Assembly: GCA_016933055.1 (NCBI GenBank)
Contig: JAFGBS010000030.1
Coordinates: forward strand, 1 to 28,331
Reading direction: 5' to 3'
DNA from: Promethearchaeota archaeon
GTDB lineage: Archaea; Asgardarchaeota; Lokiarchaeia; Sigyniarchaeales; Promethearchaeaceae
Length of the DNA stretch: 28,331 nucleotides
Shown here piece after piece: positions 8,129 to 17,112 of this stretch. The number at the start of each line of letters is the position of its first letter. Within the stretch, counting starts at the first letter, position 1. The notes under the pieces are model-generated. The model was not told the DNA's origin. It searched no databases and was given only the letters and a program-made list of their open reading frames with translations. The position numbers and the translations under genes were made by a program.

Positions 8129-8659
8129 TTATGCCCATCCTCCATGGCTATGAGAATACACGCATGTCCCATAAGTCAGTACATGAAAATTATCAATCAT
8201 AGCTCCGGTAGCAACGAATTGATATCCATCATGACAAGTAACATATAATTTAAATATAGTTCTCCACGGAAAATTCGTGGTTGCAGATACATATGTTCGA
8301 TCATCAGGTGGAAAAATCCAAGAAGGTCTGGGTAATGTAGTATTGGTAACTACTGTTTCCCAACAACCAGAGAATGGTTCTCTTTGGCTTGTATTTGTAC
8401 TATCAGTCTCTTTGAACTCACATACTTCATTGGTTTTAATATTATATACAACATTGGACTGTGAATTGGTTAGATTTTGGCTGTAAATTCGTGGAAGGTT
8501 CAATGTGTTGTTATAATATCCAGCGTCGAATTCTTCACGTTCAAGCCCACTCGGTCCCATAACAACTGTTTGATCGTATTCTTTTTAAGAAACCAACGGT
8601 ATCAAAAAACTCAAGATAATGATAGTGATATAGAATGAACACACCAACTTTTTAAGCAC
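8129..8659 (-). pseudogene. Secreted trypsin-like (glutamyl endopeptidase/V8-type) serine protease remnant
   Basis: GTG at 8659 after a GAGGGG RBS gives the signal peptide MLKKLVCSFYITIIILSFLIPLVS, then an in-frame TAA (8585-8587). The ORF continues with IFPPDDRTYVSATTNFPWRTIFKLYV...ATGAMIDNFHVLTYGTCVY (catalytic His of the LTAGHC motif replaced by Thr) and stops before the Asp and Ser motifs. Confidence 0.75.
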
Positions 8660-8859: not shown

Positions 8860-8973
8860 TTAATCTTCGTCCTCATCTTCCTCGTCATCTTCCTCCTCCT
8901 CTTCTTCCTCTTCCTCGTTTTCTTCCATCCATTCTAGTAATACCCATAGAGCAAACCAATCTTCTTCACTCAT
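8860..8973 (-). CDS. 37-aa acidic microprotein (MSEEDWFALWVLLEWMEENEEEEEEEEEDDEEDEDED)
   Basis: The ATG at 8973 is preceded by GAGGAAG. This start is more plausible than the longer ORF-track start at 9054, which overlaps the upstream gene. Confidence 0.55.
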   Translation of the reverse strand: MSEEDWFALWVLLEWMEENEEEEEEEEEDDEEDEDED

Positions 8974-9031: not shown

Positions 9032-11176
9032 TTATTGGGTTTTAACAAATTCAATACAGTCTTCGGCGATTTTTGCTTTCAATTGTTTACTTCTGATCAG
9101 ATACGTGAGTAAATCTTTCAGACTTGTATCTTTTTTTAAGAGAGGTTGAATATACGCATCCAAACGTGTATTAACATCACTTATTGGAAGTTTGGGATTG
9201 GAATTTGATAGTATGGTCAATTTCCGTAAGAATTTCTTCCTTGCCCAATGTAGCTTTCTCTTCGCTCGCCTTAACTTTCTTTTATAATACGCATATTTAG
9301 GGTCCAATTTCACCGCTACTTCGAGATAATCCACAGCGATTTGATAGTTCCCATATAGTTTATTTACTACTCCTATATTACCCCATGGATATTTTAGCCT
9401 TGGTTCCAAATCCAATGCTTTTTTATAACATTCCATGGCTTCCTCATAGTTTTTAAGTCTATAAAAACCGCAACCTTTGTCATTCCATGCAACTGAACTA
9501 TCGGGGTCTATAGATATAGCGATATCAAAAGTTTCGATGGATTTGTGATATTTTCTTAGTTTATTTAATCCCCAACCGATTCCTATATAGGCAGAGGAAT
9601 CGTCATTATCGATTTCTACTACTTTTTTATAACAAGATATCGCTTTTTTATATCTCTTTAAATCAAAATAGGAATGTGCTAAGTTATACCACCCTTCTTT
9701 TGATTGTGAATCTAGTTTCAGTCCTTTTATATAGAAATGAATAGCTTTGCGAAACTTTTTCAGATCGTAATATAACTCCGCAATTTCAAAGCATATCTTA
9801 TCATCCGTATTATCCAGTTTTAACGCTTTTTTTAAGCATTGAATGGATTGTTTTTCCTTATCCATATACCAATATGCCTTTGCTTGCTTCTTCCATGATT
9901 CCATGTCTTTAGGATAGTCTCTATGATATTGAGTATAACAAATCGCTGCTTCTTCATACTTAGCCTTCTCGACCAACGCATCTCCAATATTCAACCAATC
10001 CTTTGCAGTATAAGCGTGGTCTACTTTAACTTCCACTGCTTTAGCAAAATACTCCATTGCATCTTGGGGTTGCTTCTTCTTGAGTAATTTACATCCTGAT
10101 TCTAACCGCGTGTTTACTTTTTCGTGAAAATTGATTAGATCTTTGGATGTATTTTCGAGTTGGTGTAGAAAATTGTGAAATTCTTGAGGTTCGGGGAGGT
10201 TTTGTTCCACGTATGCATGTTTGAACGGTTCCTCTGTGTCAAAAACAAATGCGATATTCCTAATGGGTTTTAAAATTACGTGACCGTGCTCGTAGTGAAG
10301 TTGGATAAGATCAAGTTCCAGATGTCGGTCTTCGTGGATCAACTTTTCTGCAATAAAAAACAAGTAGGATAGCATGCCCGTAATATCTGTGTCACTGCTA
10401 TATTTAGGATCATTTTTTTCTTTCTCTATATAAATCTCGTGGATTTCCTTAAATGACCCAAACAACATGTTCGAATGTATGTAATCTTTAATGCCCACGT
10501 GACCCGTTCCCAGTAATCCGGGCAGTTCTTCCTTAAAATTATGAAAGAATGTATCTATCTCTTCTTCAATCCTCTCGTCATTTTCGATGGTTTCGATGGT
10601 TTCGATACGATCCTCTTCTAGCTCTTTCTCCAGGTCTTCACCATTCCGATTAATCGTCTTAGAGTCAAAGAAATACGTAAAATCATATGCTTGCCCTGAG
10701 GGAACGATCAGTAAGAGATTCGTTAATGGAGTCACTGGGACTATTATCAAGTTTGTATATGTAGATTTAATAAATATGGTTGTAATTTTGCCTTTCTGGA
10801 GTAATTCTCCAATTTTTTCGATTGGTTCTAAGAGTAGACCGTACGAATATGCTAACATAAAAATTCCGCCTTCGTCTACCGACATCTTTTCCGATTCTTT
10901 CGACTCTTGCTGATGTTCCTTTGAATTTCCTTCGGTACTTATTTCATTTGAGTGTTCTAGTGTTTCGGTTTGACCATCTTCTGTTTTTAGGTCTTTGCGT
11001 TTATCTATTTCTTGTGTTTCCGACTGAAGATCCTGGTTCTTCGATTGAAATTTGCTTGTTAGCAAATGTCCATTAGGTTGCGCTACTGCTGCACCGTAAA
11101 TATTAATATTGTTAGCTAGAAGGTCGGATAAAATTCCGTGGAGAGATTGGATCGCCCTCTTTTCCTCTTCGATCAT
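9032..11176 (-). CDS. Tandem Roadblock/LC7-like domains plus TPR array plus C-terminal winged-helix (PCI-like) protein
   Basis: LHGILSDLLANNINIYGAAVAQPNGHLLTS...IEKIGELLQKGKITTIFIKSTYTNLIIVPVTPLTNLLLIV fits the Roadblock pattern, with a ~55-aa charged insertion. A second similar unit lies at aa ~205-320. About 8 TPRs follow (e.g. AWNDKGCGFYRLKNYEEAMECYKKALDLEP). The protein ends LLTYLIRSKQLKAKIAEDCIEF. Confidence 0.8.
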   Translation of the reverse strand: MIEEEKRAIQSLHGILSDLLANNINIYGAAVAQPNGHLLTSKFQSKNQDLQSETQEIDKRKDLKTEDGQTETLEHSNEISTEGNSKEHQQESKESEKMSVDEGGIFMLAYSYGLLLEPIEKIGELLQKGKITTIFIKSTYTNLIIVPVTPLTNLLLIVPSGQAYDFTYFFDSKTINRNGEDLEKELEEDRIETIETIENDERIEEEIDTFFHNFKEELPGLLGTGHVGIKDYIHSNMLFGSFKEIHEIYIEKEKNDPKYSSDTDITGMLSYLFFIAEKLIHEDRHLELDLIQLHYEHGHVILKPIRNIAFVFDTEEPFKHAYVEQNLPEPQEFHNFLHQLENTSKDLINFHEKVNTRLESGCKLLKKKQPQDAMEYFAKAVEVKVDHAYTAKDWLNIGDALVEKAKYEEAAICYTQYHRDYPKDMESWKKQAKAYWYMDKEKQSIQCLKKALKLDNTDDKICFEIAELYYDLKKFRKAIHFYIKGLKLDSQSKEGWYNLAHSYFDLKRYKKAISCYKKVVEIDNDDSSAYIGIGWGLNKLRKYHKSIETFDIAISIDPDSSVAWNDKGCGFYRLKNYEEAMECYKKALDLEPRLKYPWGNIGVVNKLYGNYQIAVDYLEVAVKLDPKYAYYKRKLRRAKRKLHWARKKFLRKLTILSNSNPKLPISDVNTRLDAYIQPLLKKDTSLKDLLTYLIRSKQLKAKIAEDCIEFVKTQ

Positions 11177-11339
11177 CTCTATATTCCTAGAATAGTCCGG
11201 GAATATATATTTTATTGGAAATATGACTCGATTGGGGAATCCTATTTAATAACTGGGTGCTTAATAATCTTAATTATCTTTTTTCGTTAGATTGGACGCG
11301 ATTTAACGATTAAGAAGAAGTTTTATGTAGATCTTGAAG

Positions 11340-16284: not shown

Positions 16285-17112
16285 ATGAAAATTAAAATCA
16301 ATAAGAAAAAGCAGAATTTGGATGTGAAGGGGTTTTTTAAATCTAAATATCAAAAAAGCCTGGATTTAGAAGATTTAATTGAAATTGGTAATTTGTATTA
16401 TGAAGAAGGAATTTATTATGAGGCTGCAAAATATTATGACCTTGTTTTAGATGAAAATCCAGACCTTATTCAGATTTGGAAGAAAATTGGAAATTGTTTT
16501 CTGAAAACTGGGGAATATAGTGAGGCAAATATGTGCTATACCATAGCGTATGAACCAGTTATTGATTTAAAGAATCATTATGAAGAAATGATGGAGCAGG
16601 AGGATTATAATGAGAATGAAGATGAAGAAGGATTGGTAAAAGAAGAAAGAGAGGAGGAGGGGGAGGAGGGAGCAGTAAAAGAAAATGAAGAATATTTCTT
16701 GAGTAAAAGTCTCTTGAAAAAACTGATTCATAGGCTGCGAAACCGATTTGCTACTACTACTAAAACACCCCTATCTTCTAAATTACCACTTGTTAATGTT
16801 TCACGTAGATCCTGGGAATATCTTGTGAATGGTTCCAATAATTCCTTATGGCCATTCCCCATAACATTGGCTTGTGATGCTAGAAGATATGTATGGTTCT
16901 GCACGAAATATGGGTGGCATCGTAAGAAAGAAAGGATTTTTGTTGACGATGAGGAGTATCCCGTCGTTTGGGACATTGTGCATTTGCTATTGAAACATAC
17001 ATCTAGAGGAGGACGTTTTCATATCACCGATTCCATGGTGTTTCTTGATCGAAAGAAATATTATGAAACAATTTGTCGTATTAAAATTATAGAAGGGAAA
17101 AATAATGTGTGA
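16285..17112 (+). CDS. TPR protein with a Glu-rich linker and an unassigned C-terminal domain
   Basis: Two TPRs (LIEIGNLYYEEGIYYEAAKYYDLVLDENP; IWKKIGNCFLKTGEYSEANMCY), acidic tract EEEREEEGEEG, then a ~110-aa alpha/beta segment. AGGTGT RBS before the ATG. Confidence 0.75.
   Translation: MKIKINKKKQNLDVKGFFKSKYQKSLDLEDLIEIGNLYYEEGIYYEAAKYYDLVLDENPDLIQIWKKIGNCFLKTGEYSEANMCYTIAYEPVIDLKNHYEEMMEQEDYNENEDEEGLVKEEREEEGEEGAVKENEEYFLSKSLLKKLIHRLRNRFATTTKTPLSSKLPLVNVSRRSWEYLVNGSNNSLWPFPITLACDARRYVWFCTKYGWHRKKERIFVDDEEYPVVWDIVHLLLKHTSRGGRFHITDSMVFLDRKKYYETICRIKIIEGKNNV

Follow-up and report, generated by a model that had tools for sequence, protein, structure and literature searches.

A lineage-restricted Lokiarchaeal protein with two Roadblock units, eight TPRs and a PCI-type winged helix, and its probable role as an adaptor

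Roadblock dimers serve as platforms for small GTPases from bacteria to eukaryotes (PMC10933270). A gene of a Promethearchaeota archaeon raises the question of whether such a dimer can be built into one polypeptide together with a helical scaffold, and what that polypeptide would do. The window analyzed in this study is an entire 28-kb contig (28,331 nucleotides) of a 3.76-Mb genome that is 91% complete. Positions 9032-11176 on its minus strand form an uninterrupted open reading frame encoding 714 amino acids. The region is covered by one 16-kb contig from the probable source run with 0 differing letters, and short pieces of the gene are also present in a hot-spring run at an identity of at least 99%. 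The G+C content of the gene, 36%, equals that of the genome, and the position of the start codon is common to two orthologs. No catalytic domain was found in the 714-aa protein, and Rfam gave no match near the gene. The architecture is genuine: two Roadblock units, eight TPRs, a basic helix and a PCI-type winged helix in this order. The data presented below are best explained by a soluble, non-enzymatic adaptor with three binding modules, to which a probability of about 0.55 is assigned.

Unit 1 comprises aa 1-175, including an acidic insert of about 54-58 aa. Its first half (aa 1-45; 11042-11176, minus strand), with alpha1, beta1 and beta2, was delimited by alignment, HMM and an ortholog identity of 78%. 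The insert (aa 46-99; 10880-11041, minus strand) was located by alignment and ortholog comparison. It lies in the loop between beta2 and alpha2 and is the charged insertion described in an earlier note made from the letters of this DNA; its net charge is -7, and its ortholog identity is 26% compared with 62-78% in the core. The second half of unit 1 (aa 100-175; 10652-10879, minus strand) holds alpha2, beta3-5 and a short C-terminal helix. An acidic linker (aa 176-202; 10571-10651, minus strand), which is about 50 aa long in one ortholog, leads to unit 2 (aa 203-348; 10133-10570, minus strand). In unit 2, an acidic loop of about 17 aa precedes alpha2, and 13 aa are inserted ahead of the C-terminal helix. 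The second half of unit 1 and the whole of unit 2 were assigned by hhalign, alignment and complex prediction.

The cut-off of Pfam PF03259 was reached by neither unit, nor by the ortholog; unit 1 is split by the insert. A Roadblock HMM was built from Asgard proteins without the query and searched against the 7,352 ORFs of the genome. The intact protein was the top match outside the seed, at 29 bits (E 3.4e-7), and the best shuffle reached 3.3 bits. Without its insert, unit 1 scored 30-40 bits and unit 2 scored 12-23 bits, and both outscored all 500 shuffles each. Against a 68-row Roadblock alignment that omits the loci fetched by the query itself, hhalign gave 96% for unit 1 without its insert (E 4.5e-9) and 87% for unit 2 (E 4e-6). 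Both units are colinear with the alignment of the main Asgard Roadblock family and follow the order alpha1-beta1-beta2-alpha2-beta3-beta4-beta5, with detectable homology to the Roadblock/LC7 superfamily. The Atlas model matches single-domain clusters, one of them rich in Robl_LC7, with a TM by target of 0.69-0.82. No real match to unit 1 came from sequence searches of Pfam and PDB. The unit-1 profile fetched many proteins of about 135 aa, over alpha1-beta1-beta2 only, which we take to be Loki profilins. A profilin identity for unit 1 was rejected, because the long alpha2 and the five-strand order fit Roadblock. The two Roadblock-like domains read by the earlier note are thus confirmed.

The two units share no detectable similarity with each other, so a recent internal duplication is unsupported as their origin. 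Two standalone tandem-Roadblock families, of 347 aa (L122:2027-3067, minus strand) and 242 aa (L124:1653-2378, plus strand), occur in 67 and 66 of 81 Lokiarchaeia genomes, respectively. Descent of the present pair from them is likewise unsupported (hhalign at most 21%). From these counts and the lack of detectable similarity, tandem Roadblocks are ordinary in the class, and the present pair is separate and rare. The two standalone families are better candidates for a core function than the rare fusion. Two 192-aa Roadblock proteins with a winged-helix-like tail (L038:1306-1884, minus strand; L041:127-705, plus strand), encoded beside methionyl-tRNA synthetase-like genes, are the best weak matches to unit 2.

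The pairing of the two units was examined by complex prediction, in which the units were folded as two separate chains with ortholog-only alignments. The predicted complex scored 0.82, and the best control, none of the controls being another Roadblock, scored 0.00. Of 80 solved complexes, 58 reach the mark applied to this score, as do 2 of the 110 mismatched pairs. At least 82% of contacts are shared between runs, and partner pLDDT is at least 77. The surest contacts place residues 131-137 antiparallel to 289-295, and alpha2 against alpha2'. MglB dimerizes in the same beta3/alpha2 arrangement (PMC3199381). The two units are thus predicted to form a canonical beta3/alpha2 Roadblock dimer, although the pass may reflect memory of, or likeness to, solved Roadblock dimers, and a two-chain prediction cannot separate cis from trans pairing. 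In the alignment-free Atlas model, 212-217 residues of aa 4-322 superpose on two Promethearchaeota tandem-Roadblock clusters (TM 0.53-0.55); the superposition spans both units at once, which indicates the same packing in both models. The intramolecular pseudo-dimer of the earlier note therefore holds as a prediction. Predicted contacts also join alpha1 of unit 1 (4-26) to helix 332-348 of unit 2, and involve alpha1 of unit 2 (210-222) and residues 158-175 of unit 1. From this contact list, the C-terminal helices may be swapped between the units. In RB proteins, as opposed to RBLC7, the C-terminal helix alpha3 lies next to alpha1 of its own unit.

The two-helix face of such a dimer bears on whether it would act on a GTPase. 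MglA binds this face of MglB; in Thermus MglB, the alpha2 stripe that takes the GTPase consists of the small residues T61, G65, A68 and A72, and A68R/A72R cuts affinity tenfold (PMC3199381). In the shared alignment, the stripe corresponds to Y/F110-L/M114-E117-K121 in unit 1 and G267-Y271-F/Y274-K/R278 in unit 2, so conserved bulky residues stand in place of the small MglB-type ones. Across 68 Asgard Roadblocks, small residues occupy the first three positions in 91, 79 and 71% of cases and aromatic ones in 0-3%. At the fourth, Arg is the usual residue (Lys or Arg in 41 of the 68), and the MglB rule consequently transfers only partly. The face is conserved but rebuilt with bulky residues. A GAP geometry or action of the MglB type is unlikely because of the bulky aromatic residues, and GTPase regulation by this protein is unproven, since the small residues of the MglA-binding face are replaced.

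A true single-chain GAP or GEF platform for one small GTPase, like MglB or Ragulator, with the TPRs as an effector arm as SgmX is for MglA, is the rival that survives best, and it is doubtful. It would profit from the two-helix face left free in the predicted canonical dimer, from TPRs that seem to depart from the other face (judged from the contact list), and from a host genome rich in small GTPases. Pfam finds 16 Roadblock matches in this genome, which also encodes dozens of small GTPases; the count came to about 35 small-GTPase-like ORFs with a single domain, plus several Roadblock-/longin-GTPase fusions. The Lys/Arg at the A72 position, being usual in Asgard Roadblocks, is also compatible with it. 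However, L/M114 and E117 (unit 1) and Y271 and F/Y274 (unit 2) stand where MglB has G65 and A68, larger side chains at A68/A72 make MglA binding weaker (PMC3199381), and neither this contig nor the surroundings of the orthologs at two loci contain a GTPase gene. Of the candidate GTPase-regulating scaffold proposed earlier, the scaffold is supported and the GTPase regulation is unproven. Improbable as well is a single-chain module whose Roadblock dimer, asymmetric, pre-paired and with exchanged C-terminal helices, controls one specific small GTPase via a non-MglB aromatic face, while the TPRs and the PCI-type winged helix recruit cargo and oligomerize. If true, it would be an independently evolved one-protein analogue of eukaryotic Ragulator/TRAPP-type scaffolds. 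For the adaptor, a small GTPase or a Roadblock/longin-GTPase fusion would be the likeliest single class of partner, at slightly below even odds, on the basis of family precedent (PMC10933270) and the host GTPase repertoire. Some Roadblock proteins, such as the dynein light chain, work without GTPases (PMC10933270).

The C-terminal half begins with the TPRs (aa 354-629; 9290-10117, minus strand). Seven exact 34-aa repeats at 392-629 and a looser one from about 354 agree with the earlier estimate of about eight. The repeats are canonical, tandem 34-aa helix pairs that form a superhelix. A long polybasic helix (aa 630-659; 9200-9289, minus strand) caps them and runs on as helix 1 of the winged helix; the AlphaFold model has a single unbroken helix at 629-659. 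The winged helix itself (aa ~648-711; 9044-9235, minus strand) was identified by fold models and profiles and carries a helical insert of 7 aa between its second and third helices. Its AlphaFold pLDDT is 96.6; PCI-like rows in the alignment of that model may have aided folding, and the alignment-free Atlas model agrees. The tail of the Atlas model gave TM 0.61-0.67 to the SelB, RecQ, MCM and PCI winged helices. Folds other than Roadblock for the units and a C-terminus other than a winged helix were thus both checked; Roadblock homology held and, in the models, so did the winged helix.

The type of the winged helix was assessed by profile comparison. PCI PF01399 is the top Pfam match of the ortholog tail (E 0.007, 17 bits against a cut-off of 22). 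The hhalign value of the tail is 53% against a PCI-type profile and 0.2% against two control families. An identity as an Lrp-type HTH regulator was rejected (0.2% against 53%), and the common Loki winged-helix tail of TPR proteins of about 250 aa is a different subfamily (0.2%). An initial winged-helix profile of mixed composition was set aside, since it had drifted toward HTH regulators. These data support a winged helix of PCI type, at a level below the threshold. No PCI subunit was present among the best 50 fold-search rows for aa 490-714; these rows cover the TPR part only, as TPRs fill the list and the winged helix itself is not probed. In both full-length proteins, the chain stops 1-4 residues past the last strand, and no helix follows the wing. 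In the PCI subunits of the lid, CSN and eIF3, a helix after the wing joins the bundle. No PCI/MPN gene set was found in the window. The 714-aa protein is not regarded as a PCI-complex subunit. Elsewhere in Asgard archaea, the same winged helix follows TPR, LRR or MPN domains and is a promiscuous module. The eukaryote-like PCI scaffold of the earlier note was an overstatement in view of the canonical TPRs, the missing helix after the wing and this promiscuity.

The same genomes hold other proteins with winged helices. An uncharacterized family of 887-918 aa (L237:2405-5152, plus strand; L239-L244) joins LRR, TPR, a PCI-type winged helix and a Ser/Thr kinase, and occurs in six genomes of the same family, two of them complete. 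Winged helix-TIR and LRR-winged helix(-TIR) proteins (L191, L196, L201 and L202), possibly of an immune-type architecture, occur in several Loki genomes.

The protein family is small. The only full-length ortholog is MHA1111508.1 from Promethearchaeota, with 711 aa and 55% identity over the full length. The others are three fragments: a split copy of the 711-aa protein, a 202-aa fragment and a 275-aa N-terminal fragment. Among 1.84 billion representatives, three clusters matched. In a survey across Asgard genomes, of the kind proposed earlier, no ortholog was found in the other 399 of the 400 genomes searched, and two complete genomes of the same family had no match to the N-terminal half. In the Roadblock cores, a rough dN/dS from the full-length pair, whose synonymous sites are near saturation, was 0.11 and 0.09; the TPRs gave 0.29 and the tail 0.21. 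These values point to purifying selection in every module. The family is too rare to be core machinery.

An adaptor of accessory defense or stress signaling, which would sense a signal or pass it on to kinase, TIR or NLR-like proteins by way of winged-helix contacts, is unlikely. The distribution is patchy, a NACHT-WD40 protein and a nuclease-related domain are among the neighbors on the contig, PIN/MazE and DNA methylase genes surround the ortholog, and LRR-TPR-winged helix-kinase and LRR-winged helix-TIR proteins carry the same winged helix. However, the context is not conserved, since the orthologs have no neighbor in common and show no synteny, the protein has no effector domain, and many unrelated accessory genes gather in variable regions.

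About 100 nt of upstream DNA (11177-11275, minus strand) is shared by three orthologs despite their unlike neighbors, which supports the start codon. Within it are a TATA-like box 26-34 nt 5' of the ATG and a 35-nt element (11241-11275, minus strand), about 65-100 nt upstream of the ATG and conserved in the three orthologs. The region would act as a promoter, and the 35-nt element may be a regulator site. Since the upstream DNA is shared while the neighbors differ, the comparison suggests that the gene travels together with its promoter. A one-component transcription regulator, with ligand sensing by the Roadblock pair or the TPRs and DNA binding by the basic winged helix, perhaps at the gene's own upstream element, is very unlikely. 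The C-terminal 82 aa (cap plus winged helix) do adopt a winged-helix fold and are strongly basic (net charge +15/+16 in both full-length proteins), and the 35-nt element is conserved. Against this, the tail fits the PCI-type profile and not that of the Lrp-type HTH regulators of the genome, the basic residues lie on the cap helix instead of the recognition helix, and the element has no second copy in this genome. Equally poor are the prospects of trans pairing, or of pairing with free Roadblock subunits, which would lead to oligomers or to heteromers of the Ragulator kind and not to a closed pseudo-dimer: the linker is long, acidic and variable and the two-chain test with its non-Roadblock controls is blind to the difference, but the single-chain Atlas model already arranges both units as in tandem-Roadblock proteins, and the covalent link favors cis.

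The adaptor reading, for which all structures are predicted models, can be drawn as follows. The two units would fold onto each other via beta3-beta3' and alpha2-alpha2' into a fixed asymmetric dimer, and the closed dimer may keep them out of the pool of about 22 other Roadblock proteins in the host cell. The two-helix face, at a dN/dS of about 0.1, would be the conserved business end that docks one specific partner. The TPR superhelix is predicted to start at the C-terminal helix of unit 2, on the four-helix face opposite the two-helix one, and its groove would hold a client protein, as is known for this repeat family. The basic helix and the PCI-type winged helix may make a third contact, either with a further winged helix or with a negatively charged surface, for example a membrane. 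The net effect would be to bring a client to a signaling partner. The Roadblock platform is acidic (-34) and the C-terminal cap with the winged helix is basic (+15); such opposite charges could conceivably allow a closed, self-inhibited form. The protein is probably a lineage-restricted adaptor that arose by lineage-specific shuffling of common Asgard modules, and not the forerunner of a eukaryotic complex.

Comparison with known systems places the parts on familiar ground. The Asgard Roadblocks MKD1-RB, Thor-RB and Odin-RBLC7 (PMC10933270; PDB 7F8M, 7F8F) share the fold order, a colinear alignment and the beta3/alpha2 dimer predicted here. They differ from the present protein, which has two diverged units per chain, long acidic loops, a bulky alpha2 face and a fusion to TPRs and a winged helix, and stays below Pfam detection. 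MglB, the GAP of MglA, and Ragulator LAMTOR2/3 are likewise Roadblock dimers with a free two-helix face (PMC3199381); unlike MglB, the present protein has no cognate GTPase gene nearby and does not retain the small stripe residues. In Myxococcus, a TPR protein (SgmX) and a Roadblock protein (MglB) act around one switch (PMC3199381, PMC7519303), resembling the combination of TPRs and Roadblocks here. The standalone tandem Roadblocks of Lokiarchaeia carry the same two domains per chain and match in structure, and are near-universal; they are not the source of this N-terminus. The PCI subunits of the proteasome lid, CSN and eIF3 likewise have helical repeats followed by a C-terminal PCI-type winged helix, but to our knowledge none has a Roadblock head. 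Their repeats are described as HEAT-like, whereas those here are canonical TPRs, and, through their winged helices, six PCI subunits form a ring together with MPN partners (PMC9467303); no MPN partner is encoded nearby here.

One published survey found Roadblocks to be common in prokaryotes. Surveys of Asgard archaea describe patchy, lineage-specific shuffling of longin/Roadblock, TPR and HTH/PCI modules in multidomain proteins (PMC10936438; bioRxiv 10.1101/2020.10.19.343400), and the present protein is of this kind. This exact domain order had no match in the literature searched, in agreement with the earlier statement that the architecture is not recognized as characterized. The modules are known and ordinary in Lokiarchaeia, and the combination is uncharacterized and rare. 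Its rarity speaks to ongoing domain shuffling in Lokiarchaeia more than to the ancestry of eukaryotic complexes. The protein offers a defined Roadblock "heterodimer" in one chain, with no guessing which of about 20 Asgard Roadblocks pair. It is a clean test case for whether Asgard Roadblock dimers act on small GTPases, and also for the role of a PCI-type winged helix outside PCI complexes.

Three further reading frames were noted in the window. Just downstream of the gene, a tiny ORF (8860-8973, minus strand; 37 aa from its ATG) has a W-rich start followed by a near-pure Asp/Glu run; no such gene is called after the ortholog. A 143-aa ORF (8129-8560, minus strand) without a Pfam match ends abruptly. 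Its end resembles the start of a V8/trypsin-like protease domain, and it is presumably a remnant. At 16285-17112 on the plus strand, a 275-aa protein has one clear TPR near its N-terminus.
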